IMG/VR virus record: IMGVR_UViG_3300032282_001443
Location: 1-31,882 of that record
Reading direction: 5' to 3' (one strand)
DNA: 31,882 bases
Origin: a virus
Lineage: Duplodnaviria > Caudoviricetes
Positions 4,562 to 30,094 of this stretch are shown here, piece after piece. The notes beneath the pieces were generated by a model, which saw only the letters and a list, made by a program, of their open reading frames with translations, had not been told where the DNA came from and searched no databases. How positions within the stretch are numbered: position 1 is the first letter of the stretch; every line of letters begins with the position of its first letter. The position numbers were made by a program, and so were the translations under genes.

Positions 4562-4789
4562 TTATAGAACGCGATCTAAAAAGTCGCGAATGGTTTTTTC
4601 GTGAGTTTTGTTCGGTGGATGTATTCCAACAAACCAGTTGTAAACAGTTTGTTTAGACACATCGAAGAACGCCATCACGTCGGTTACCGGGATGTCTTTG
4701 GCGATGCAGTACCGCCCAAGACGCACCCCGACACACTTACCATCCGCATCTCTATTGAGGCGTACAGTTTGCAGTGTGTAACCCTTCAT
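4562..4789 (-). CDS. Small Cro-like HTH DNA-binding protein
   Basis: 75 aa with the HTH pattern VTDVMAFFDVSKQTVYNWF. TAATG coupling to the upstream gene. Confidence 0.75.
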   Translation of the reverse strand: MKGYTLQTVRLNRDADGKCVGVRLGRYCIAKDIPVTDVMAFFDVSKQTVYNWFVGIHPPNKTHEKTIRDFLDRVL

Positions 4790-7778: not shown

Positions 7779-7953
7779 CTTCTTGTTCCTTCATGAGAAT
7801 AAGGGTGTGGTACAAAACTCTGGACTCCGCCACTAACTGAATCGACAGTTCTTGGGCTTGAAGCATTTCATGGTCCAGAAGATGATTGTGCATCCGACGC
7901 AGAAGATTTTCAATCTTCATCATGGGCATTGCGTAGTCAGTTATGTCAGTCAT
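7681..7953 (-). CDS. Hypothetical protein; its 3' end overlaps the HNH gene by 98 nt
   Basis: AAGGAGG RBS and ATGA coupling. Helical N-terminal about 57 aa, then a low-information tail overlapping the HNH frame. Confidence 0.6.
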   Translation of the reverse strand: MTDITDYAMPMMKIENLLRRMHNHLLDHEMLQAQELSIQLVAESRVLYHTLILMKEQEDALRQQTTPVQKRIPATSGAGRATYTNGAAKS

Positions 7954-14046: not shown

Positions 14047-14075
14047 AATATACGGGGCTTGTTGGACTATGTCAA
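14047..14075 (-). promoter_or_regulatory. Sigma70-like promoter TTGACA-17-TATATT, probably leaderless
   Basis: The - strand reads TTGACA tagtccaacaagccccg TATATT ctgggc ATG, with no SD sequence. Confidence 0.75.
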
Positions 14076-14121: not shown

Positions 14122-14150
14122 GGAATAGTCGACACGTTGTCGATAATTCC
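14122..14150. repeat. 29-bp palindrome copy 1
   Basis: GGAATAG TCGACA CGT TGTCGA TAATTCC, between the terminator and the promoter. Confidence 0.9.
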
Positions 14151-14154
14151 GGGC

Positions 14155-14180
14155 AAAAAAAAGACCCGCCGAAGCGGGTC
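14155..14180 (-). terminator. Rho-independent terminator (UUCG loop)
   Basis: The - strand reads GACCCGC-TTCG-GCGGGTC-TTTTTTTT. Confidence 0.92.
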
Positions 14181-14193
14181 AAAGGGTAGCAGG

Positions 14194-15081
14194 TTACGGG
14201 TTAGTTAGTATCACGAAGTGCGTGTCGTTGTGCCTGTAGCCTACATCACGCACGACCTCTTCATCTTCCATCAGTTGGAGCACCGCCAGTCTGTCTTGCC
14301 ACGGGGTAGGTAACTCTTCAAACGACTGGAACCTAGTAACCATCTCGGTCAGGTGTTCATCATGAGACACAGGTTCCTTGTATAAGTACCCGCCCTTGTA
14401 CCGTATGACAACTAGCTTGTCTTTCCTGACATCCATAGACGCGGCCAGATCAAACTCACTCATTGCCTTATGGTACTTGTCCGAAGTCATCTTAGTTTCC
14501 ACCCGCTGTTTAAGCTGGGTAGGTATCTCCCGCCCTGTCAACTGATGGTAGACATACTCCTGCAAGTCCGAATGGTTCTTGAATAAAGTATTGCGTGATA
14601 TGTCGTTTGCCAGACGAGCCAACGCCCGATCGCAGTCATACAGAACACTCTTTGCGGCCTCCAATACTTCATCAAACCCTCTGGGCAGAAAGTATTTCTT
14701 GACCGCACGCTTGGCCACCTCAATCTTGGTAGTCTTGGTGGTGTTCCGCGAGCCTCGCTCGTTCTCTATGCGCCAGCACTTGATCTCCCACACCACATCA
14801 CTGCCCTTAGTACGGCTGTACCTAGTATCCACCAACAACTCCCCCATGTTCTCGTCTTCGCAGAACACAAACAGTCTTCGCATAAACTTCATACCCTCGG
14901 GGGCTTGCACCGAACGAGCCTTCAAGGTAGAGGGGTACGAGTAGTGCACGAACTGTGTGTCGTCCATGGTCCGCGTGGTGAATGTATAGGATGGCATGGC
15001 CAAGGCCAGCGGAGTTACCAACTCTGCCAGCATAGGGTCCATGATATATCCGTCTTTGATAATTACGTTTGCAAGTTGCAT
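14194..15081 (-). CDS. Hypothetical protein
   Basis: 295 aa, AAGGA RBS, last gene before the terminator. Confidence 0.8.
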   Translation of the reverse strand: MQLANVIIKDGYIMDPMLAELVTPLALAMPSYTFTTRTMDDTQFVHYSYPSTLKARSVQAPEGMKFMRRLFVFCEDENMGELLVDTRYSRTKGSDVVWEIKCWRIENERGSRNTTKTTKIEVAKRAVKKYFLPRGFDEVLEAAKSVLYDCDRALARLANDISRNTLFKNHSDLQEYVYHQLTGREIPTQLKQRVETKMTSDKYHKAMSEFDLAASMDVRKDKLVVIRYKGGYLYKEPVSHDEHLTEMVTRFQSFEELPTPWQDRLAVLQLMEDEEVVRDVGYRHNDTHFVILTNP

Positions 15082-15091
15082 TATGTTTTCC

Positions 15092-15976
15092 TTACCAATT
15101 GAATTTACTGAGGATGTCGTCGACGCTAGACTTCAACTCGACACGAGCGCCGTCACTACCACGCAGGTCCTTCGGGTCAAAGCCCGCTATCGCTTGCTCT
15201 AGCATACGGCGAGCCTTCTCAAGCTCTGGGTCCTTCGTCACATTGAGCCGCGTCAGCAGGTCACACATACCTGACGCATTGGTCACGATTGAGTCGCGGA
15301 ATATCTTCCGTTCACCATCATCCCTGTCGGTCAAGGTGGTGCTCATCTTAGTCAACAGTGCATGCAGTCTCTCCCATGGGTCACGCATGGCATCGGCCAG
15401 CTTGGCGTTGTACATCTTCTCGTACTGCTCAGCCAAGTCGGCGCGGACTTGTTCTTCGCAGCGGATGCGGAAATCCCCCTTCTCTGGAACAGGGAGGAAG
15501 TTGTACTCAAACTTGAACCTGCGCGGCAAGGTCTCCACATCGGGAAACTCTTCAGCGCGGTAGTACTTACCCAGCCTGAACGCTTGATCGTTCTTGAGTT
15601 TGGGGTACTCCGCGATGAAAGCGTCAACCAATGCGTAGAAATTGGATTCCATCGTGCCAAGCTGGCCACGGTAATGAAAGAAGTTCTCCATCGGTAACAG
15701 CCCAATACCCTTCATCCAAGGCAGGGTCTGCGTCCCGTTCCACGAGCGACACTTGGCCGCGTACTTCTCAATCTTCTTGAGGTGGTCACTGCCCGCCATC
15801 AGGTACTTGTAGACAGAGCCTGAGTCTTGGTCAGCTTCCTTGGAAGTGTTGACCTCCATCGTGGTCTCGTTGTCACGCTTACGCGCTGTCCATGTGCTGA
15901 TACGCAGTTCGACCAGCATGGCCATGGATGCAAGGGATACCGCCGGGGCGGTGTGAATGATCGTATTCTGTGTCAT
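15092..15976 (-). CDS. DUF3150-like protein
   Basis: 294 aa. MLVELRISTWTARKRD, TLPW...LLP and YP...F...Y...FP resemble the family that accompanies phage AAA/vWA pairs. Family name is from recall. Confidence 0.6.
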   Translation of the reverse strand: MTQNTIIHTAPAVSLASMAMLVELRISTWTARKRDNETTMEVNTSKEADQDSGSVYKYLMAGSDHLKKIEKYAAKCRSWNGTQTLPWMKGIGLLPMENFFHYRGQLGTMESNFYALVDAFIAEYPKLKNDQAFRLGKYYRAEEFPDVETLPRRFKFEYNFLPVPEKGDFRIRCEEQVRADLAEQYEKMYNAKLADAMRDPWERLHALLTKMSTTLTDRDDGERKIFRDSIVTNASGMCDLLTRLNVTKDPELEKARRMLEQAIAGFDPKDLRGSDGARVELKSSVDDILSKFNW

Positions 15977-15988
15977 GGTGTTCTCCAG

Positions 15989-17062
15989 TTAGTTAGGAAT
16001 CATCGACACTTTGTCGATTGTTCCGAGGTTGCGAATGTGAATCTCGTGAAAGAAGTTAAGGTTGTTTCTGGTGGGTAACTGCCCGTCAGGTAGACGCTCA
16101 CGGGTGAACACCTCATCGTTGTGCAGGAATGAGGTCAACGCCCTGAGAAACTCCACTGTCCTATCAAGGGGTAGTATGGCTTTCGTGTGCCTGTACGCCC
16201 CGTTGTGGTCCCTGAAGTGCAGGTGCCGACCCTGATGCCGTGTGATGACATACATAGCTTGCACCCAATCCTCCGCATCCTCGTTCGTGAGCCACGAGTC
16301 AAGCAACTCACAGCTTGGGCGGTGGAAGTGGGAATAAGCATGGCGCGAATTGCCGCCACGAAACGGGAGGCACCCAGCATTACGCCGCTCGTCGTACAGC
16401 GTCCATCCTTCAGAGCTAGCGCGTAGTTCAATGTTTCGTATTGCTGTCCCATAGGCTTCTTCCGAAGGAACACCGGCAATACTCCGAAGCCGATCGCATG
16501 CTTCCTGCATTTCATCCGTGTCGATCTCGCGGTTCACGCCCGTCACGACCTGCAACCAATCCATGAAGGGCTGGTACTTGGTCATGATCTTCATCGCCAC
16601 ATTCCTATTCGCTCGTACAGCGTAGGCCACAGGTTTATTGAGTAACAGGTGGTGGTTGCCCGCCACTTGAAACTCCAACTTACCGCCCGCTGGGATGAAG
16701 TACTCCATGCCACTCTTCAGCGCCACGAATATCTCGCCATGCCTCCAGCCGAATATCCCCTCTGGTACATACTGACTGGTGTTGTTTGGCGTGTACGCGC
16801 TGGCATACACAGGTCTGTGCACTGTGTAGGTGTCGTCCGATCGCCACTGCACGAGAGGTCTCCCGCAATACTCCATGTTGACCGTGTCTGCATCGGGCAT
16901 CGAGATACTCGCCATCCTGTGATGACGGCGTAACCCGAGTGGCCTAACGCTTTGTGGATGCCCCTTGATGGGCTTGGTCTGCTCGTACCTCTGCTTCGCT
17001 TGCGCGAAACTCGTGATGTGCGGTACGCCCGCTGTGTTGTAACTACTGTACCCGTAAGCCAT
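15989..17062 (-). CDS. Hypothetical protein
   Basis: 357 aa, AAGGAG RBS. Confidence 0.8.
   Translation of the reverse strand: MAYGYSSYNTAGVPHITSFAQAKQRYEQTKPIKGHPQSVRPLGLRRHHRMASISMPDADTVNMEYCGRPLVQWRSDDTYTVHRPVYASAYTPNNTSQYVPEGIFGWRHGEIFVALKSGMEYFIPAGGKLEFQVAGNHHLLLNKPVAYAVRANRNVAMKIMTKYQPFMDWLQVVTGVNREIDTDEMQEACDRLRSIAGVPSEEAYGTAIRNIELRASSEGWTLYDERRNAGCLPFRGGNSRHAYSHFHRPSCELLDSWLTNEDAEDWVQAMYVITRHQGRHLHFRDHNGAYRHTKAILPLDRTVEFLRALTSFLHNDEVFTRERLPDGQLPTRNNLNFFHEIHIRNLGTIDKVSMIPN
15996..16024. repeat. 29-bp palindrome copy 2
   Basis: GGAATCA TCGACA CTT TGTCGA TTGTTCC, in the last codons of the 357-aa ORF. Confidence 0.9.
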
Positions 17063-17252
17063 GTTGGCTCTCCTTGTGAAGATATGCTTCCTGAATAAAC
17101 GACATGCTGATAGATAGCTGGGCTATCTGTGCACGCCGATGCTGAGACTGCACGATTTCATTCATGCAGACAAGACTCCCGATCTGGGGAAGTTCCTGTT
17201 TGTTGGGGCGCTGATACTCAACTCTCCCCTTACCTATAACAACTAAAGGCAT
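17043..17252 (-). CDS. Hypothetical protein
   Basis: 69 aa filling the gap between neighbours; weak RBS. Confidence 0.5.
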   Translation of the reverse strand: MPLVVIGKGRVEYQRPNKQELPQIGSLVCMNEIVQSQHRRAQIAQLSISMSFIQEAYLHKESQHGLRVQ

Positions 17253-17258
17253 GACGAT

Positions 17259-17414
17259 CTACCCCTTTGCTGTGTTATACATACTGATCAGATGGCGTAC
17301 CACCTGCCCGTAGGTTGGCTCAAACCCTAGCTTTACGCCAAGGTCATCGCGCACCCTCTGCAACAACTCAAAGGTTTCCCTGTTGAGGTTGATGTTGTAG
17401 TTGCCCGCTATCAT
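17259..17414 (-). CDS. 51-aa putative ribbon-helix-helix protein
   Basis: MIAGNYNINLNRETFELLQRVRDDL...TYGQVVRHLI gives a strand-helix-helix pattern. ATGA-coupled. Confidence 0.6.
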   Translation of the reverse strand: MIAGNYNINLNRETFELLQRVRDDLGVKLGFEPTYGQVVRHLISMYNTAKG

Positions 17415-17665
17415 TTCTTGTCCTTCGCTTCCTTGGCCTTGCGGTTGGTCTCCAACTGAAGCCAATAGTGCGCGGTCATGGGCTGGATACTCACCGAATC
17501 AAGTTCGGGGCCGCTCATCACATTCCCCCAATCCTCGGCTATCCGCACTTCCTTGATGCGTGACGCACTACACAAGATCTTCGCAACAGCGAGAGCTTCG
17601 GCTATCTCCATGTAGAAAGTATGGCCACTGATTTTCAATATGACTTTGTCGTCGTCCATGATCAA
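17411..17665 (-). CDS. Hypothetical protein
   Basis: 84 aa, coupled to the vWA gene stop. Confidence 0.7.
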   Translation of the reverse strand: MIMDDDKVILKISGHTFYMEIAEALAVAKILCSASRIKEVRIAEDWGNVMSGPELDSVSIQPMTAHYWLQLETNRKAKEAKDKK

Positions 17666-18954
17666 TCCTTAATGTTGACAAGCTGACCCACGGGCGGGGT
17701 AAAGCTTTTGCTACCAATAATGCACCACAGGACAGGGCATGTCACGCCCGCCCACTTCGCCGGATCACTGCTCATGTACCCATCGGAGAGAATCACAAGC
17801 ACATCAGGAGCCAGGTCATGAGCGTGCATGAACACGGGTACGCAGTCAGGGTCCGTGCCACCACCACCCTTGGGGTTGGTGCGATGCACAATAGACTTCT
17901 TGTCCGCATCCTTGTATGTCTCATGCCCTGCAACATCGGTGTCCCAGTACAGTACATCGACCCGCTCGGGATTCGTATCCGTTATGACCTTATTGAACTC
18001 GCTCATGAACATGGTGAGTAGATCGCCTACCACAGAGCCAGAAGTATCCATCGCCAGCACGAGGTGCCTGACCCGCTTACCTATCACGCTGGGCAGGATG
18101 ATGTCCTGCCACAGATAGTTGCGGTGCGCCTTGCGCCATGACGGAGCCTGACGATCGCGCATGTGCGTCTTAACGAATGCTCGCACCACCTCACGCCAGT
18201 CAACCTTAGGTGTGAGCAACTCACCGATCTCACGGGACATCTGCCCACCCATCTTGCCAGCATAGATACCGCCTTGGCGCAGGGCTTGGTCGATGTCACG
18301 CTCAAGCTGTTTCTTCTCGTTCTCGCTAAGCCCGTCCTGTGCACCTTCCCAATCGTGCTCGTCGAGTCCGGAACCATCGACACCTTGTCGATCATTCCCA
18401 TCCCCCGGCTCGCCCTGTTCATCGGAAGGCTCGCCGCCGCTACCGCCGCGCCCTTTACGCCCGCCCTTGCACTCCTCCTTGAGGATGTCGTAGACCTGCC
18501 GCGCATCCATACCTTGGAAGCGTGGGTCGTGTGCGCCCATGCGCTTGCCCGTCACCTTGTCACGGGGATGCACGAGTACAGTCTCGTTGGGGTCCATCTC
18601 TTCAAGCTGGAGGTTGATGACATGATCACACGCGGTGTTGGCCAACGAATGGTTATCGTCGTACAGGCTACGCCATGTTGTGAGATGGCGGTAACACTTG
18701 TGCATGTTCTCGTGCATGACAAGAAAGGCTAACTCCTTGTCGGTCAGCGAGTCCACGAACGCCCGCCCGTAGACAGCGTCACGCCCGTTGGTCTTGGCAG
18801 TGGGAGTCGTGTCATCCACGCTCGTCTTGCCCACCATGAACAGACCTGCGAACAGGGCGAACCGCTTGTCCTGCATGAGGGACACATGCACCACCTCAAT
18901 GCGCTTCTCCGCGACCAGCTTGGGCTTGGCCGTTGGCTTACTTACTACCAGCAT
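17662..18954 (-). CDS. HEXXH metallopeptidase-like plus vWA domain protein (DUF2201-type)
   Basis: TAKTNG...FLVMHENMH...N.ACD..IN, then a Gly/Asp linker with LDEHDW, then MIDAS DTSGS, GGGTD and LSDG. Start ATG 18954 with an AAGGAG RBS. Confidence 0.85.
   Translation of the reverse strand: MLVVSKPTAKPKLVAEKRIEVVHVSLMQDKRFALFAGLFMVGKTSVDDTTPTAKTNGRDAVYGRAFVDSLTDKELAFLVMHENMHKCYRHLTTWRSLYDDNHSLANTACDHVINLQLEEMDPNETVLVHPRDKVTGKRMGAHDPRFQGMDARQVYDILKEECKGGRKGRGGSGGEPSDEQGEPGDGNDRQGVDGSGLDEHDWEGAQDGLSENEKKQLERDIDQALRQGGIYAGKMGGQMSREIGELLTPKVDWREVVRAFVKTHMRDRQAPSWRKAHRNYLWQDIILPSVIGKRVRHLVLAMDTSGSVVGDLLTMFMSEFNKVITDTNPERVDVLYWDTDVAGHETYKDADKKSIVHRTNPKGGGGTDPDCVPVFMHAHDLAPDVLVILSDGYMSSDPAKWAGVTCPVLWCIIGSKSFTPPVGQLVNIKD
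18370..18398. repeat. 29-bp palindrome copy 3 (intragenic)
   Basis: GGAACCA TCGACA CCT TGTCGA TCATTCC, encoding GNDRQGVDGS in the disordered linker. Confidence 0.9.
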
Positions 18955-19147
18955 TTTCGATCTCCTTGAATTGAATACTTCCATCAGTCGTTCGGGTGAA
19001 CGAACCTTTTTTGTCAGCAGCTCCTTGAACCGCTTCCATTAACGCGATAAGGGCTAGCTTGAAGAAGGACACCCGCGCCCGCTCGTAGGCATAGAGTCCC
19101 ACCATCACGCAGTTCCCTAGCACCAGCAGTAGTTCAGTGTCGGTCAT
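18938..19147 (-). CDS. Small protein with a hydrophobic N-terminus
   Basis: 69 aa, GGAGG RBS. Confidence 0.65.
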   Translation of the reverse strand: MTDTELLLVLGNCVMVGLYAYERARVSFFKLALIALMEAVQGAADKKGSFTRTTDGSIQFKEIENAGSK

Positions 19148-19310
19148 TGGTCACCTCCGCGATGTAGGTTATTGCGCTCTCCACGAACCGAGCACTCTTT
19201 ATGATGTCAAAGGACTCAACCGCTTTTGTCTCAGCTTCCTCTTTCGTTTCAGCCTCGACCTCAATAGAGTCCCAGTAGGTCAGTTCTACATGTACTTTGT
19301 ACTTCTTCAT
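19134..19310 (-). CDS. 58-aa DpnD/PcfM-like small protein (below the ORF-track cutoff)
   Basis: MKKYKVHVELTYWDSIEVEAETKEEAETKA... AGGAGG RBS, ATGA-coupled. Confidence 0.65.
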   Translation of the reverse strand: MKKYKVHVELTYWDSIEVEAETKEEAETKAVESFDIIKSARFVESAITYIAEVTNDRH

Positions 19311-19582
19311 ACTTCCTCCTTCTTGAGCATTGCATCTGCCAGCATGGTCATGCCGCTGTAGACGAGCGAGTCGTCACTCTTACGCGCCACATCATCGCCT
19401 AAGCGCATAATGTCCACAGGCATTGACCAGTAGTCAGGGCCATCGTCACCACGCCGGGCAATAACAGTCTTGTTAAAGCCCGCGCCGCAGGTGTACCAGT
19501 CCAGCGTGTCGCTGAGCACAAACATACTGCCAAGGTACTTGCACTTGTTGCAGTCGTGCTTCCATTTCGGATTCATCTTCAT
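19307..19582 (-). CDS. Hypothetical protein with an HDCxxC motif
   Basis: About 91 aa from ATG 19582 (GGAG RBS); contains PKWKHDCNKCKYLG. Confidence 0.7.
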   Translation of the reverse strand: MKMNPKWKHDCNKCKYLGSMFVLSDTLDWYTCGAGFNKTVIARRGDDGPDYWSMPVDIMRLGDDVARKSDDSLVYSGMTMLADAMLKKEEV

Positions 19583-19592
19583 TTGTTTCTCC

Positions 19593-19621
19593 GGAGTTTT
19601 AGACAAGTTGTCGATTTATCC
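19593..19621. repeat. 29-bp palindrome copy 4 (variant)
   Basis: GGAGTTT TAGACA AGT TGTCGA TTTATCC; overlaps the AAA gene stop. Confidence 0.8.
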
Positions 19622-20692
19622 CTTGAGGCCAGCAAACATGTACTGGTTCTCGCGGGCCCATGTAACGAACGAGGGGTGAGACATGGCCCACTGCTTCTTC
19701 TCGCGCACCTCCAGTAAGCTGTTAATGAACACAGCCTGAGTCTCTTTGGGCATGCGCCGCACGAACCTCATCCACGGGGCGTAGGTGTCACGGGTCACAA
19801 CGGCCACGCCCTTGAACGCCAAGATACACAAGGCGGCGGGGCTGGTGGGCATGGTCACCGAGTCGGGCGAGTTCTCGATCGCCTCGCGGGTCGGGAGTTG
19901 ATCGGACAAGCTGATGTACGCCTGCAAGTCACGACTGCCTGCGATACCTAGCGTGCCGTCAAGACAGGCAATCAAGCTGTTCTCTGTTAACTCGTCACGC
20001 ACCTTCACCCAGCGTGACGCCTTCTCCAGCGAACGCGGCGACACAAAGCTGGTCTGCGCCGCATTGGTTGGGTTGAAGATGTACGGGTTATCTTTCTGCC
20101 CGCCGTCCATGTAGCTGTGCATGCAGTGCTCATACTCCTTGACCCACGCCATAACCTCTGGCGCAATGCCCGCGTTGCCCGCCCACACCAACCACTTGGC
20201 GGCAGTCGGTTTCATATATGTGAGCCATGTCTGGCGGTTGACGGTGTGTTTCTTGACGGAGTCCCCCACGCCATCGCCGTCCATGTTGCCCGTGGTGAAC
20301 ACAATGGTGTTGGGGTGCAGGTTGTAATCGCCAAGGCGACGCTCGTGCAACAACGGGTGCAGGGTATTGCGGACATAGTCATCGGTCTTGGTCCACTCGT
20401 CGATCATGATCACGCAGGGTTCGTTCAGATGCAGTTTGAAACTGCCCGCTGGGTAGAAGTCCAAGATGCGCTTGTCATGGTTGGGGATGGGCATGCCCGC
20501 TTGGCCCACATCGGTGTTCGGCCCGTCGATGTAGACCTTGTGGTATCCGGTCTTGGCGACCAGCACATCCTGAATGGCCGTCTTGCCCACGCCCGGCTCG
20601 CCCCGCAGGTGCACGGAGTTGCCTCCAGAATTGAGGAGAATGGCCACGGCTTCGTCATGGTCCACGCGGCGGTTGAAGTTGATGTCAGACAT
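19616..20692 (-). CDS. AAA+ ATPase (MoxR/AAA_5-like)
   Basis: Walker A GEPGVGKT, Walker B IMIDE, sensor I TTGN, Arg finger NR and sensor II SPRS. Confidence 0.9.
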   Translation of the reverse strand: MSDINFNRRVDHDEAVAILLNSGGNSVHLRGEPGVGKTAIQDVLVAKTGYHKVYIDGPNTDVGQAGMPIPNHDKRILDFYPAGSFKLHLNEPCVIMIDEWTKTDDYVRNTLHPLLHERRLGDYNLHPNTIVFTTGNMDGDGVGDSVKKHTVNRQTWLTYMKPTAAKWLVWAGNAGIAPEVMAWVKEYEHCMHSYMDGGQKDNPYIFNPTNAAQTSFVSPRSLEKASRWVKVRDELTENSLIACLDGTLGIAGSRDLQAYISLSDQLPTREAIENSPDSVTMPTSPAALCILAFKGVAVVTRDTYAPWMRFVRRMPKETQAVFINSLLEVREKKQWAMSHPSFVTWARENQYMFAGLKG

Positions 20693-20733
20693 CTTGGTTT
20701 CCTTGAAAGTGAAGGTTTATAAGTTGAGATACA

Positions 20734-20762
20734 GGAGAAATCGACACCGTGTCGATTACTCC
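20734..20762. repeat. 29-bp palindrome copy 5
   Basis: GGAGAAA TCGACA CCG TGTCGA TTACTCC; overlaps a stop codon. Confidence 0.9.
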
Positions 20763-21040
20763 GAGCGGGTGTTTTTCTGATTGGTGTCTTTAAGTGTCTG
20801 GGGTGCAGACGCTTGAGTCACCAGCATATACGGCCCCTTGCCGTATGTTTGCACCACGCACCAAGATGCGCGATCAGCCTCTGCGGCTTCTTGCCCGCAG
20901 AATAAGCAGAGTTTGAAACCGAGGTTCCAACGCTCTACATGCACATCATCCCCGCAACGGGGACACATGCGCCAGTCGTAGTTGACGCGATCAACTTTAG
21001 CTGCCATAGCGTCAACCAATTCTCTAGTATGGAGAGTCAT
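20756..21040 (-). CDS. C4 zinc-finger protein, DksA/TraR-finger-like
   Basis: CPRCGDDVHVERWNLGFKLCLFC. Start ATG 21040 by ATGA coupling. Confidence 0.65.
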   Translation of the reverse strand: MTLHTRELVDAMAAKVDRVNYDWRMCPRCGDDVHVERWNLGFKLCLFCGQEAAEADRASWCVVQTYGKGPYMLVTQASAPQTLKDTNQKNTRSE

Positions 21041-21126
21041 GCCCGCCACACCAGAAGATCAAGGGCCAGCACAATGAGTGCCAGCAGAAACACAACGCGC
21101 AGGACGCGGTCTGGGAGTTTGTTCAC
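21037..21126 (-). CDS. 29-aa single-pass membrane peptide (below the ORF-track cutoff)
   Basis: MNKLPDRVLRVVFLLALIVLALDLLVWRA. GTGA and ATGA overlaps at the two ends. Confidence 0.65.
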   Translation of the reverse strand: MNKLPDRVLRVVFLLALIVLALDLLVWRA

Positions 21127-21365
21127 AGTTCGTACCTGTCTTTCTCCCGCGCAATGCGGATGGTCATGTCGTCTTCGCAGACAGATGCACTCACATCTAT
21201 CATGCCCGCTTGCATACGCTCGTTGATGGTGAGCACAGACCCATCGGTGAAGACCACAGAGATGCCTTCGCCAAAGTCATCAAAGTAATCAATACGGGCT
21301 ACTGTCTTGCCTTGGAACACTTGAAACATGTCATTACTCTCGTGCATTTCTTTACTCTTACGCAT
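21123..21365 (-). CDS. Hypothetical protein (about 80 aa)
   Basis: ATG 21365 with a GGAG RBS; first gene after the promoter at 21479-21507. Confidence 0.7.
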   Translation of the reverse strand: MRKSKEMHESNDMFQVFQGKTVARIDYFDDFGEGISVVFTDGSVLTINERMQAGMIDVSASVCEDDMTIRIAREKDRYEL

Positions 21366-21394
21366 AGGAAACTCCAATAAAGGATTGAGGAACC

Positions 21395-21423
21395 GGAGAA
21401 ATCGACAGGCTGTCGATAACTCC
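21395..21423. repeat. 29-bp palindrome copy 6
   Basis: GGAGAAA TCGACA GGC TGTCGA TAACTCC, in a 5' leader. Confidence 0.9.
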
Positions 21424-21478
21424 GAACATGGGGAAAACCCCCTGTACATCCGTTCGCTATCCCAAATGTACAAAGTAC

Positions 21479-21507
21479 ATTCTAACACACTAATTAGACT
21501 TTGTCAA
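21479..21507 (-). promoter_or_regulatory. Sigma70-like promoter TTGACA-17-TAGAAT
   Basis: The - strand reads TTGACA aagtctaattagtgtgt TAGAAT. Confidence 0.8.
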
Positions 21508-21539
21508 GTCCCTCTCCGCGTTTTGGCACCTGATTCCGT

Positions 21540-22256
21540 TTAACTCTCAAGTCGGCCATCTATGGGTTCGGGATAACCCTGAGCCATGAGTTTCTCCCTT
21601 TCCTTCTCTTGTTTCTTGGCCATGAGCAGGTCAAAGTACGGACCGAGGAAGCCTTCCATCTCTGTCTCCATCTCGGGCGTGATCGGGTCGACAAAGGTCG
21701 AGGCTTTCTTTGGGGGTTCTTCGCGGCGGCGTATGACGAGCAACGGTTTGTTGGGGTCGGCGTACTTGGGTGCTTTGAGGGCGGTGAACACGCCGCGCCC
21801 GTTGAGGATGCCCCGGCCATCGTAGCCCGCTGTGAGGGCAGAGTTCGCAAGCATGATAAGTAAGTCGGGGTCCTTTGGCCGCATCGCCCGCAGTTCCTCT
21901 TCCGGTGGTGCAATCAGATCGCGGACACCTTCCTGATCAGGAAGCAAAGCATTGGGCTGTCCGTTCTTGAGGCGCTTCTTGCGAATCGCCGTGGCTTCAA
22001 CATAGTGGTAGGGGTTGATGCAGTAGGGTTGATCGCAACACCGGACCAAGCGACTGCGTGACGGGATGTGTCGGCATAGGGTGAAGGTCACCCGCACGAT
22101 GCTGGTGGTGTTGAACTTCATCGCCAGCGTGGACATGGGCGAGAAGGTCGGGGTGGAGAGGGTGTTGGAGGTTTGGGGCCAGATGAGGCAGTCGTTGACC
22201 TGCTTGCAGTTGGCGAAGAGATCATCGGCGTTCTTGTACTTGGGCGTGCGTGACAT
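21540..22256 (-). CDS. Protein with a degenerate HNH/zinc-binding N-terminal domain
   Basis: DCLIWP...LVRCCDQPYCINPYHY resembles the HNH motif VRHxCDNxxCVNPxHL, with His replaced by Cys; 238 aa. Confidence 0.6.
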   Translation of the reverse strand: MSRTPKYKNADDLFANCKQVNDCLIWPQTSNTLSTPTFSPMSTLAMKFNTTSIVRVTFTLCRHIPSRSRLVRCCDQPYCINPYHYVEATAIRKKRLKNGQPNALLPDQEGVRDLIAPPEEELRAMRPKDPDLLIMLANSALTAGYDGRGILNGRGVFTALKAPKYADPNKPLLVIRRREEPPKKASTFVDPITPEMETEMEGFLGPYFDLLMAKKQEKEREKLMAQGYPEPIDGRLES

Positions 22257-22278
22257 GGGGGGCCTTTAAAAAGTGCTG

Positions 22279-22617
22279 TGGAGGGACATTATATGCACAC
22301 ATCTCTTATTTAATCAAGCCCCAGAACCCTAGTGTTTACCCCGTTTTTGAGGATAATGTAATAGATGTTATGTGTTGTCGCTTTTTTTTGCACCTAGAGG
22401 AGGCGGGGAAAAAAGTTGGCGAGGTGGGCGTGGCGAGAAGGTCGGGGAAAAGAGGGGATGAATCCCAGGACCTCTCACTGGTACAGAAAAAAGCGACAAC
22501 ACACAACATCTATTATTATATTATTATTATAAATAAATAAAGAGAACAAAAACAAGGACTTGCAAAAATCGGGCTGGATTTTTAATGTAAGAGACCTGTG
22601 CAATATGTGTCCCTCCA
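22279..22617. repeat. Nested inverted repeats with an AT-rich tract (candidate replication origin)
   Basis: Outer arms 22279-22321/22571-22617 are imperfect. Inner arms 22359-22387/22487-22515 match at 28/29. AT tract at 22511-22541. Confidence 0.75.
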
Positions 22618-22850
22618 GAAGAGGCTTCCTGCGGGCTTATTATTGGTGTTGCGGGGCCGAGTGGGGGAAATGGCGGGTGCATCGCCCGTAGTTTTATAGA
22701 TTATCGCTGTGGTGCTGAGCCAACAAACTATGCAGGATTTGCATGGGAAAACGTCGCCCGTTGCTGACTTATGTGTCAGTGGTACTTAGGCCCCTAAGTA
22801 AAACTAGACCCGCTGGGCACTTGCCGAGCGGTCGACTGTCTTCCAAGCCC

Positions 22851-22879
22851 GGAAAGAACGACACTTTGTCGACTATTCC
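22851..22879. repeat. 29-bp palindrome copy 7
   Basis: GGAAAGA ACGACA CTT TGTCGA CTATTCC, non-coding. Confidence 0.85.
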
Positions 22880-23078
22880 AGGCTACCCCGTTACCAAGGG
22901 AACTGGTATACAAAGAAGAGCGTGGTCACCCCGTTCACACCGCCCGCCCAGCTTGTTCTTTGGGCAGCAAAGTTGATAGATACCTATAAGCAAGCATAGG
23001 CTACCCCGTTGCTCGGACAGGAACTGGTCTCAAAGCCCGCGCCGACCGCCGATTGGAATTCAGCGGGCAACGCGGGCC

Positions 23079-23105
23079 AAAAAAAATGGGGGCCGAAGCC
23101 CCCGT
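23079..23105 (-). terminator. Rho-independent terminator (UUCG loop)
   Basis: The - strand reads ACGGGGGC-TTCG-GCCCCCAT-TTTTTTT, directly after the stop at 23108. Confidence 0.9.
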
Positions 23106-23107
23106 GG

Positions 23108-23335
23108 TTACTCAATCCCATTTTCGCGGCAGAATTCTCTGAGTGCGCTGTTAGTACGCTCCAGACTTTCCGCCCCATCCGTGGGCACATCTGCGATAAA
23201 GTAGCACACGGCCCGCCATGCGTGGGCGGGCTTGTTGTCGTAGTCTGCCCTCGGGTCAAACCAATCACCCACGGATGCGTGATTGGACAGAAGAAACTCT
23301 TTCATTGCGATAAGCTCTTTACGGGTCATGATCAT
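23108..23335 (-). CDS. Hypothetical protein (about 75 aa)
   Basis: GGAG RBS, ATGA-coupled, ends at the terminator. Confidence 0.7.
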   Translation of the reverse strand: MIMTRKELIAMKEFLLSNHASVGDWFDPRADYDNKPAHAWRAVCYFIADVPTDGAESLERTNSALREFCRENGIE

Positions 23336-23487
23336 TTCTCCGAGCAAAAGTACAACAAACCAGCCACGCAGTAGCCGGAACCAATCAGCAGGAATTGACG
23401 CAAGGGCACGCCCTCAGAATCCCAGCCAAACACGATAGTGATCACGGCCATAGCCGCGAAGAAGGCAATAAAGATTTTGTCCAACAT
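23332..23487 (-). CDS. Small two-TM membrane protein
   Basis: MLDKIFIAFFAAMAVITIVFGW...FLLIGSGYCVAGLLYFC. Start is uncertain (23487-23496). Confidence 0.65.
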   Translation of the reverse strand: MLDKIFIAFFAAMAVITIVFGWDSEGVPLRQFLLIGSGYCVAGLLYFCSEK

Positions 23488-23521
23488 AATCATCATCCTA
23501 TAACAAAGAAGGGGAAAGGCC

Positions 23522-23550
23522 GGAACAATCGACAGAGTGTCGACCATTCC
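23522..23550. repeat. 29-bp palindrome copy 8
   Basis: GGAACAA TCGACA GAG TGTCGA CCATTCC, intergenic. Confidence 0.9.
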
Positions 23551-23561
23551 GACCCAAGGGT

Positions 23562-24209
23562 TTAGCTCAGCATTTGCAGAGCAGAGATCAACAACGCGTC
23601 CGCGTCATCCGTGCCCGCTTTTGCCAACTCTTTCACGCGGGCGATCAACTTGTCACGAATCGCGACACGCTCAGCCGTGGCTTGTGCTATGTCCGCCGCA
23701 TTACGCCGTGTCAACTCAGCGTTGATCTTCTTGACCATAGTGCACGACTTGTCATCGCCCTTGGTTAACAACTCAGCTTTGCGACTTTCCAAGTCATCAT
23801 CGCTGAACTCAGCCAATTTGGCGATCTCTTTTGCCTTCGCTTCAGCCTTGCGGACCGCGTCTTTCGACTCTGACTTTGGTACCACGAAGTCAAAGGTAGT
23901 GCCAAGCCGCTTGATCTGCCTTTCCCAGATTTTCTGCGCCGCGTCATCCGACTTGCCCTTGTCAACCGCGCCCGCTTTGTGGAAGTCACGAACCAGACTA
24001 AACTCAACGAAGGGTAAACCCTTCACGATGTCGAACAGGTTTTGATCCAAGATGGCGCGAGCTTCTTCGCCCTTTGCCATGAGAATCTCAGCCGCCAAGG
24101 TCTCTTCACCGATGGCGAAGATGGTTTGTTGCATTTCGACAGCAGGAACGCCGCCGATGGTTTGCACCGCAATCGCGGACGCGATCGCTGTAGAGGTTTG
24201 CTGAGCCAT
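23562..24209 (-). CDS. Hypothetical Ala/Lys-rich helical protein, first gene of the leftward arm
   Basis: 215 aa, GGAG RBS. Confidence 0.8.
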   Translation of the reverse strand: MAQQTSTAIASAIAVQTIGGVPAVEMQQTIFAIGEETLAAEILMAKGEEARAILDQNLFDIVKGLPFVEFSLVRDFHKAGAVDKGKSDDAAQKIWERQIKRLGTTFDFVVPKSESKDAVRKAEAKAKEIAKLAEFSDDDLESRKAELLTKGDDKSCTMVKKINAELTRRNAADIAQATAERVAIRDKLIARVKELAKAGTDDADALLISALQMLS

Positions 24210-24250
24210 GATTTAATCTCCAAGTTAAGAGGTTTGCCAATATCGGCACA

Positions 24251-24280
24251 GGAACAATCGACACACTTGACGATAATTCC
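24251..24280. repeat. Palindrome copy 9 (30-bp variant)
   Basis: GGAACAA TCGACA CACT TGACGA TAATTCC, with a 4-nt spacer, in the leader of the first early gene. Confidence 0.75.
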
Positions 24281-24629
24281 CGATGTCCAGCCAATCTCGC
24301 TGTCCATGGTTAAACTATAACGGAACCACCGAATAAGGGTTGAATCTCCACAGCGTATTCCAAAGCATTGAATGGAAAAATCTGGCGCGATCTTCTCCGA
24401 CTACACCACCAAAATCAAAACGATCTCGCGCCGGACACGCTACTGCAAAACGAAACGCCGCCCGCGCCGGACCCACCGTGGTGGCACCCCCCAAATTGGA
24501 GAACACGGTGCGTCACGCCTACGTACACAGTGTTCCGCGCAGCGGATGTTCAAAAATTAAAAACACCCCCCGTCACTTTTTATTTTGCCGACCCCCCACC
24601 CCCTATATATTTTTGTAGAAGACCCCCCC

Positions 24630-29512: not shown

Positions 29513-29700
29513 CAGAAATAGAGTTTCTTAAAAAACAAAACGACGAGTACCGCCAGCAGGCGGTAGACAGGCTTTGTACGGGCGCAGCCAAAGACTACGC
29601 CGAGTACCGAGAGTTGGTGGGGGTGATTCGAGGTCTTGACCACGCCAACTTAACACTTCAAGACTTCGCTAAACGAATGGAGCAATTAGACAATGAGTGA
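29509..29700 (+). CDS. Small conserved head-module protein
   Basis: 63 aa, ATGA-coupled to the portal; contains YAEYRELVGVIRGL. Confidence 0.75.
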   Translation: MTEIEFLKKQNDEYRQQAVDRLCTGAAKDYAEYRELVGVIRGLDHANLTLQDFAKRMEQLDNE

Positions 29701-30094
29701 AATCCTCGTAAGCCAAGACGGTGCAACATCAACTGTCCTTCCCGAAACGGCTGAAGAGAAAGCACGGCAGGTACCCGATCCCGCCACCTTCCATCTTCTG
29801 TGTGTTTTGCCTGAAATTGACGAGTCCTACGACAGCGGCATAGTGAAAGCTAGCCAGACGCTGCACTACGAGGAGGTCCTATCTCCCGTGTTGTATGTCG
29901 TCAAGATGGGACCCGATGCGTACAAAGATGAAAAGCGGTTCCCCAGTGGTGCGTCATGCAAAACAGGGGATTTTGTGTTGGTTAGACCCAACACCGGTAC
30001 ACGGATCAAGATTCATGGCAAAGAGTTCCGCATCATCAACGATGACTCGGTCGAAGCCGTGGTTCAAGACCCGCGTGGTATTTCCCGTGCATAA
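29693..30094 (+). CDS. groES: GroES-like co-chaperonin
   Basis: Mobile loop SGIV, then VVKMGPDAY, KTGDFVL and GTRIKIHGKEFRIINDDSVEAVV. Confidence 0.85.
   Translation: MSEILVSQDGATSTVLPETAEEKARQVPDPATFHLLCVLPEIDESYDSGIVKASQTLHYEEVLSPVLYVVKMGPDAYKDEKRFPSGASCKTGDFVLVRPNTGTRIKIHGKEFRIINDDSVEAVVQDPRGISRA

Follow-up and report, generated by a model that had tools for sequence, protein, structure and literature searches.

We analysed a 31.9-kb piece of a tailed-phage genome (IMG/VR record IMGVR_UViG_3300032282_001443, positions 1 to 31,882), and this whole stretch is called the window below. Its replication genes and an early arm lie on the minus strand, and its terminase and portal genes on the plus strand. 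Near-identical DNA is present in lake and freshwater metagenomes, and no RNA data set was among the matches listed. The early arm carries an array of bipartite palindromes, which the initial annotation had described as nine 29-bp copies. We confirmed the array as eight 29-bp copies and one 30-bp copy (Table 1). The eight fit the pattern GGARNNNTCGACANNNTGTCGANNNYTCC with 0-2 mismatches, and the ninth, with one mismatch, has a 4-nt centre. The 29-bp pattern gave no match in 100 dinucleotide shuffles. Apart from the array, no match with fewer than six mismatches was found in the whole window, which agrees with the reported absence of copies outside 14122-24280. The site-to-site spacing of 661-2374 bp and the crowding toward the terminase junction were also as first described. 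Copies inside open reading frames had been reported as well. Only site 3 is found deep in a gene; site 6 falls in a leader if translation is taken to begin at the start codon that follows the ribosome-binding site.

Each site is two-fold symmetric with the layout 4-3-6-3-6-3-4, in which an outer box and an inner hexamer are separated by a triplet in each half. In 223 distinct sites collected from 32 phages, a centre of 3 nt is the commonest (196 sites), followed by 4 nt (22) and 2 nt (five). Position 7 of the half-site is mostly A (151 of the 223 left arms).

Table 1. Palindromic sites and associated features of the early arm (window coordinates)
Feature	Positions	Strand	Remarks
Predicted sigma70 promoter, replication genes	14047-14075	-	TTGACA-17-TATATT
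Site 1	14122-14150		Last of early arm; directly past early terminator; 47 bp before next -35 box
Predicted intrinsic terminator, early operon	14155-14180	-	From sequence; 7-bp GC stem, UUCG loop, 8 T
Site 2	15996-16024		In last codons of 357-aa gene, before DUF3150
Site 3	18370-18398		Within low-complexity linker of DUF2201 vWA/metallopeptidase gene
Site 4	19593-19621		Over stop codon of AAA ATPase; 2 mismatches
Site 5	20734-20762		Over stop of 97-aa gene, upstream of AAA ATPase
Site 6	21395-21423		In leader, 55 nt after -10 box of strong early promoter
Predicted strong sigma70 early promoter	21479-21507	-	TTGACA-17-TAGAAT
Site 7	22851-22879		Intergenic; 1 mismatch
Site 8	23522-23550		Directly after stop of 215-aa gene (g215)
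g215, first early gene, likely reader	23562-24209	-	215 aa; all-helical model; no known family
Site 9	24251-24280		In leader of g215; 30 bp, 4-nt centre
Candidate first promoter	24314-24352	-	TGTGGARWTY box and TATAGT -10-like hexamer, about 34 nt before site 9; by eye, 20 aligned upstream regions

The exact pattern was found in 31 distinct viral contigs. Thirty of them encode homologues of window genes and hold their sites in the same slots, which lie between the small terminase and the VRR-NUC gene. Relatives keep 8-11 sites per early arm in these slots, and in three complete relatives all 9-10 sites are inside a 10-13 kb early arm; the confinement suspected from the window is thus conserved. 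When relatives were recovered through the AAA ATPase or through g215, slots and layout were kept and all sites of a phage had changed together. Type A, that of the window, is GGAA..TCGACA; the others are B (GGAC..TCGACA), C (GAAC..CCGACA), D (GAAC..TCGAA) and E (GGAA..CCCTT), with two further versions in loci L146 (GAAG..CCGACA) and L148 (4-nt centre at 8 of 8 sites). Loci anchored on the terminase added the inner boxes GTGTCA, CTGACA, GTGACA, GTTACA, CTTAG, GCGACA and CGGAT, and a metagenome scan gave four further loci with no new site type. Dropped before counting were L041, for lack of a phage homologue, six loci that were short or nearly duplicated others, and 22 of 54 loci with fewer than five sites. 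In the terminase-anchored set, 55 of 160 loci were kept, the other 105 having less than 4.6 kb upstream.

Judging from covariation between genes and sites, the sites are very probably read by the product of g215. Among the 55 terminase-anchored loci, 20 had g215 together with bipartite sites (2-10 in the stretch covered; two of these loci repeat earlier contigs), 26 had another first gene together with CTAACA-N1-2-TGTTAG, and nine had neither. Co-occurrence with one gene family, a check proposed with the first description, was thus observed. Phage L068 combines type-C sites with a type-D backbone: of 16 genes, 15 were nearest to type D and only g215 was nearest to type C. Between G001 (type B) and G002 (type A), most core genes were 88-99% identical, compared with 48% for g215. 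Phages L029 and L063 fell among GAA-type phages on a tree of terL and the AAA ATPase, yet they have GGA sites and K121 in g215; on a g215 tree built without the contact columns they fell outside the GAA clade. With the contact columns removed, the g215 tree required fewer changes of site type than 8 of 18 gene trees, tied with the other 10 and was never worse. The partial correlation between g215 distance and motif distance was 0.41-0.72 given any one of 19 other genes, whereas the reverse did not exceed 0.40.

Residues of g215 also followed the letters of the sites. In the discovery phages, K121 accompanied G at site position 2 and R101 accompanied C at position 12 without exception (29 of 29 each), and R97 accompanied C12 in 28 of 29. 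The reading of guanine by lysine and arginine is established chemistry. The rules K121/G2 and R97/C12 were fixed beforehand and applied to 18 new loci, where each was right in 17 and they were the best single predictors of all positions. The R101 rule covers the discovery set, the new-locus alignments having gaps at R101.

Several observations weigh against g215 as the reader or against its residue code. Many other columns scored as high in the 29-phage set, which we attribute to kinship. Identity in the alignments of the new loci is 20-35%, their sites were put in register by requiring A at position 3, and one of these loci (L254) has only two sites. The Fisher values for the two rules (0.0007 and 0.0016) overstate independence because the phages are related. 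There are exceptions in L265 (K121 with T2), L175 (E97 with C12) and L029 (N97 with C12). The code does not account for the GGAA/GGAC difference between types A and B, since L105 has mostly GGAC sites and A-type residues in both helices. In overall correlation with motif distance, terL, portal and g322 (0.57-0.67) were similar to g215 (0.64), tree margins were just 1-3 steps, and genes beyond the compared stretches were assessed in one genome pair. In addition, the protein is net neutral (32 K+R, 35 D+E) and had no consistent family match in Pfam.

The AlphaFold model of g215 is all-helical (predicted local distance difference test, pLDDT, 92; predicted template modelling score, pTM, 0.62), with long helical stalks. 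A three-helix domain at residues 44-106 (pLDDT 96) is followed by a PKS linker and a helix at 116-133. Foldseek gave nothing at E <= 0.001 with the full model against PDB and BFVD or with the domain against PDB. VIA-align reached a best Z of 6.4, with no clear match; the scores that bear on a helix-turn-helix (HTH) fold were only Z 4.8-5.2, to PafBC, SelB and DnaD helical domains, among many unrelated rows. A profile search of solved structures gave a best E of 0.034, to unrelated helices, and Atlas scores peaked at 0.89 for unnamed phage clusters and at 0.81 for named ones. A weak or missing structural match does not establish a new fold. No relatives of g215 were found among 50,697 annotated phage records, and no description of the array or of g215 was found in the freely accessible papers searched. 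The protein g215 would represent a new family of readers, without known fold or profile. In L171, L175 and L221 the g215 relative is inverted onto the terminase strand, and in L171 it is still flanked by sites.

The sites are tightly linked to promoters. We predicted 50 sigma70 promoters within arrays. In 38 of these cases a site begins 31-58 nt downstream of the -10 box, against an expectation of 2.6, and at none of the 50 does a site overlap the promoter boxes. Duplicated promoters each bring their own site, and g215 itself is flanked by two sites. A protein bound at such places would meet the elongating polymerase and not block its binding, which suggests repression by roadblock. On these grounds, we consider it somewhat probable that g215 represses the early arm as a roadblock, with negative feedback on its own gene. 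If g215 is the reader, that it blocks transcription seems fairly probable from the position of the sites. However, position alone fits repression, antitermination or a structural role alike. The stoperator-like function proposed in the initial annotation is supported to this extent.

In the proposed mechanism, g215 would bind each palindrome as a two-fold symmetric pair, a dimer being suggested by the symmetry. The helix at 88-106 (W95-x-R97 and R101) would read the inner hexamer, and the helix past the PKS linker (K121) the outer box. Made first, g215 would fill the site in its own leader, the sites behind the early promoters and those spaced along the operon. Bound g215 would stall the elongating host RNA polymerase, so that the early genes switch themselves down, and it would back up the terminator at the border with the replication genes. 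Swaps of g215 alleles, followed by rewriting of all sites, might give each lineage a private specificity. The plain reading of such a system is a timer for the switch from early to replication genes. A bolder reading, which we hold to be rather unlikely, is kin silencing: the first protein of a resident phage would paint the early arm of a later phage of the same site type and shut it down, or a phage would hold its own genome dormant in starved lake bacteria. Relatives would escape by exchanging the reader allele and changing all ten sites. On this reading, g215 would belong to a new family of DNA-binding proteins whose code has two parts, with R97/R101 reading the inner hexamer and K121 the outer box. 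None of four records, three of them complete, had a tyrosine integrase, a serine integrase or ParA (PF00589, PF00239, PF13614; ParB was not searched). Ordinary prophage maintenance is therefore not indicated.

It is unlikely, though worth weighing, that g215 binds the sites for a structural job on the first-entering DNA, such as coating or looping it, protecting it against host defences or promoting entry of the remaining genome, like the T5 pre-early proteins in second-step transfer. The sites occur every 0.7-2.4 kb wherever coding allows, including mid-gene and past the terminator, they are confined to one 10-13 kb arm in three complete genomes, and the long helical stalks of the model would suit such a role. 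The tight spacing behind promoters (38 of 50 against 2.6) speaks against it. Moreover, a protein made after entry cannot at once protect the first DNA unless it is packaged.

Less probable still is a positive factor acting behind the promoters, either by antiterminator loading or as an activator of the replication promoter near site 1. Phage antitermination signals sit in the initially transcribed region of early promoters, as these sites do, and site 1 is upstream of the promoter of the replication genes. However, ten symmetric copies, some of them mid-gene, are more than would be required for loading. In relatives, the next -10 box is anywhere from 71 to 105 nt away from site 1, unlike a fixed activator contact.

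The element might also act as RNA or single-stranded DNA, in the form of a stem with a 3x3 internal loop that serves as a processing site or as a hairpin read by g215 or a host nuclease. Good copies fold at -11 to -14 kcal/mol, centres of 2-4 nt are tolerated, and avoided pairing could mark a required internal loop. On the sense strand there are 117 G-U pairs against 69 A-C pairs, and this strand is the better-folding one at 133 sites, compared with 78 for the other. These counts lean toward RNA, but a coding-strand bias for A-to-G and C-to-T changes would also yield a G-U excess. Compensatory covariation of stem pairs is a feature of RNase III-type stem-loop processing sites. It exceeded shuffles at only one of 13 positions, position 4, which covaries within phages (173 against 163.8, P = 0.004, the sites of related phages not being independent) and again leans toward RNA; positions 5-7 fell below shuffles. 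The strong covariation that was to redirect the initial annotation toward RNA processing was thus not seen. The stem letters are constant within a genome and differ between lineages, site 4 folds at only -3.1 kcal/mol, 6 of 14 sister-clade sites fold at -3.2 or weaker, and a search of Rfam gave no match. We consider an RNA stem very unlikely.

The triplets rarely pair, as had been noticed at first, but the earlier wording understated the effect, as pairing is below chance. At the three triplet positions of the 223 sites, pairs numbered 81, 69 and 97, against 104.9, 96.7 and 115.8 for shuffled arms. The deficit appeared in 29 of 32 phages, and all three positions paired in 15 of 254 sites against 33.5 expected. 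Twenty-seven phages retain the site inside the linker of the vWA gene, 18 of them in one reading frame and nine in another, and the peptide varies with the site type; site 1 is beyond the early terminator. Because the triplets under-pair, the in-gene site is kept in two frames and one site is past the terminator, the element is likely a double-stranded DNA site. This agrees with the original preference for a protein-bound dyad with two sub-sites per half over an RNA hairpin.

Reading of the sites by a host regulator, as decoys or a hijacked operator, or by another phage protein seems highly improbable. Lineages could differ in host, and in the G001/G002 pair g238, g84 and a 200-aa head-region protein diverge as well as g215. 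However, 596 Gb of prokaryote genomes held two exact matches, about the chance expectation of 2.2 by our own arithmetic at even base composition; that search covered exact matches to the window's site type in a set from which the phage's host may be missing. The host-regulator decoy suggested at first is thus not favoured. The residue-level rules are found in g215, and of the binders first listed only this 215-aa gene fits. The HTH protein at 4562 and the 68-aa ribbon-helix-helix (RHH)-like protein are 97% and 98% identical between G001 and G002, which differ in site type, and the latter is 96% identical between a type-C and a type-D phage. The RHH-like gene at 7950 had no tblastn match in any of the 31 contigs with the motif, not even in L036, which covers the genes on either side. 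The 238-aa protein (g238) goes with the backbone in L068 and is uncorrelated with motif distance (rho -0.03). That the repeats are recombination joints shuffling early gene cassettes and kept alike by gene conversion is hardly credible: most sites are at gene borders, and repeat-to-repeat recombination is reported for Cluster O palindromes (PMC4351075), but gene order between sites is nearly constant, one site is mid-gene, a tyrosine or serine recombinase appeared in none of the four records, the copies differ at 9 of 29 positions, which would leave too little identity for general recombination, and no site-to-site joint was among those listed for seven runs, in contigs that drop rare forms.

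Roadblock repression by g215 can be compared with named systems. The repressors of Cluster A mycobacteriophages (L5 gp71, TipsytheTRex) resemble it in that a single phage protein has numerous scattered sites, both intergenic and close to promoters (PMC9283540, PMC6550527). In both systems protein and site motif diverge together. Two DNA-contact modules per polypeptide are demonstrated for the Cluster A repressor, while here they are suggested by the residue code. Cluster A sites are asymmetric 13-mers oriented with transcription, more than 20 per genome, bound by a monomer and carried by temperate phages (PMC9283540, PMC6550527). In contrast, the sites here are 29-mers with two-fold symmetry; a genome has 8-11 of them, in one arm, and they never overlap promoter boxes. 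Integrase and ParA were not found. The Cluster A repressor combines an HTH with a Stoperator domain, to which no likeness of g215 is detectable. By analogy, the array may work like Cluster A stoperators but stands apart from them in symmetry and in lifestyle.

Cluster O mycobacteriophages have 34 copies genome-wide of the 17-bp palindrome TGTTCGG-NNN-CCGAACA (PMC4351075). Like the present sites, these are dyads with a 3-bp centre, occur in intergenic and coding places in conserved slots, and are absent from host genomes; the phages are not obviously temperate and the function of the palindromes was unexplained, which resembles the present case. They differ in having one box per half and in being mostly away from promoters, and the available part of the source names no reader and describes no lineage-specific versions (PMC4351075). 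The sites here have a different sequence and number 9-10 in one arm of three complete genomes. The first-step-transfer region of T5, with its injection stop signal and A1/A2, also has palindromes and repeats in the first-expressed part and early DNA-acting proteins; its repeats cluster in one untranslated region (bioRxiv 10.1101/866236), whereas the present sites occur singly across 10 kb of genes. D29 Gp36 is, as proposed here, a lytic phage's own sequence-specific repressor that lowers genes downstream of its site, but it is of the MerR family and acts at GC-rich direct repeats, with no palindrome array in the portion of the report at hand (PMC12266134).

By terminase, the nearest named records are DSL-LC04, HTVC027P, HTVC023P and Pag-Yong1/MinM2 (49-57%). 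HTVC023P-type phages and Pag-Yong1, MinM2 and Pra-JY27 share head genes with GroES with the window. Pag-Yong1 also shares the early block of AAA, vWA and DUF3150 and has a palindrome array of its own: 37 copies of GGTTCAG-N-CTGAACC (<=2 mismatches) occur genome-wide in OL906435.1, densest in the early arm, and two flank the first early gene (38932-39495). Homology of g215 to the first genes of Pag-Yong1 and HTVC023P (gp23) was not detected (probabilities of 0.6% and 5.3%), and the examined parts of DSL-LC04, HTVC023P and 023Pt_psg01 held no inverted-hexamer array. No likeness was detected between the 357-aa gene and a Pag-Yong1 protein that carries the annotation AcrVA2. With regard to Pag-Yong1, three records that are all 65,014 bp long are assigned to three different cyanobacteria as hosts.

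In sister phages, a different first gene goes together with a different palindrome. In 26 loci (L164-L301; for example L205:8431-8943, minus strand), the first protein is a different one of 162-189 aa with invariant W45 and W83; it has a conserved helix-turn-W-x-R segment and lacks the PKS helix. These loci have 8-18 CTAACA-N1-2-TGTTAG sites without an outer box, against 0-3 such sites in the other 29 loci, and five complete genomes of this clade have 8-12 exact sites in one region each. Comparatively, 38 of 43 predicted promoters in the sister clade have a site 37-84 nt after the -10 box. Homology between g215 and the sister first gene was not detected (probability of 0.8-2.4%), although the aligned piece is the W-x-R helix. 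Four loci with a third first gene have TTAACA-NN-TGTTAA, and L310 has eight copies of ATACTGTC-N-GACAGTAT. No inverted-hexamer array was found in L180, L214, L237 or L260. The centre length in the sister clade (1 or 2) roughly tracks two protein subfamilies, and its first gene is doubled in L205, L248, L250, L282 and L301. Further first-gene families with their own palindromes occur in L276, L291, L292, L309 and L310.

Some other features of the window were recorded. A TGTGGARWTY-like box (24337-24352) replaces TTGACA in most of 20 relatives and could be an activator site or an end or packaging signal. A second small palindrome, AATGTAC-TTT-GTACATT (21463-21484), overlaps the strong early promoter at its -10 box and start, and a small palindrome is also at this promoter in L056, L059, L066, L068, L069 and L070. 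The region 22250-23100 is hypervariable, mostly non-coding and rich in A/T runs, and most strain joints in contigs fall there. Contig depth over g215 (23135-24422) was above that of its neighbours in four runs (X1, 26-32 against 12; X4, 41 against about 18; X3, 10 against 7.5; X5, 13 against 9). This is a weak hint of a terminal repeat, as alleles shared among strains would give the same picture and contig depth is not copy number. The AAA ATPase, DUF2201 vWA/metallopeptidase and DUF3150 genes (15092-20692) form a conserved early block; the AAA ATPase is 22-26% like N4 gp24-type proteins, and among annotated phages DUF3150 was found only in the Pag-Yong1 group. The C-terminal part of a DarB-like giant virion protein is at 9-1361, and a GroES-like gene is in the head cluster at 29693-30094.

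A kind of phage repeat that had no explanation can now be paired with a named candidate reader and a putative residue-level code. The link to g215 could guide a search for the reader of the Cluster O palindromes, which the 2015 paper left unexplained (PMC4351075), and a cultured phage, Pag-Yong1, has a comparable array. The layout is common to a large group of lake phages, estimated at about 1,500 stored terminase stretches, and its more than ten natural site specificities offer starting points for orthogonal regulators. Lytic phages would possess something like an immunity system if it is in competition among kin that the private specificities serve.

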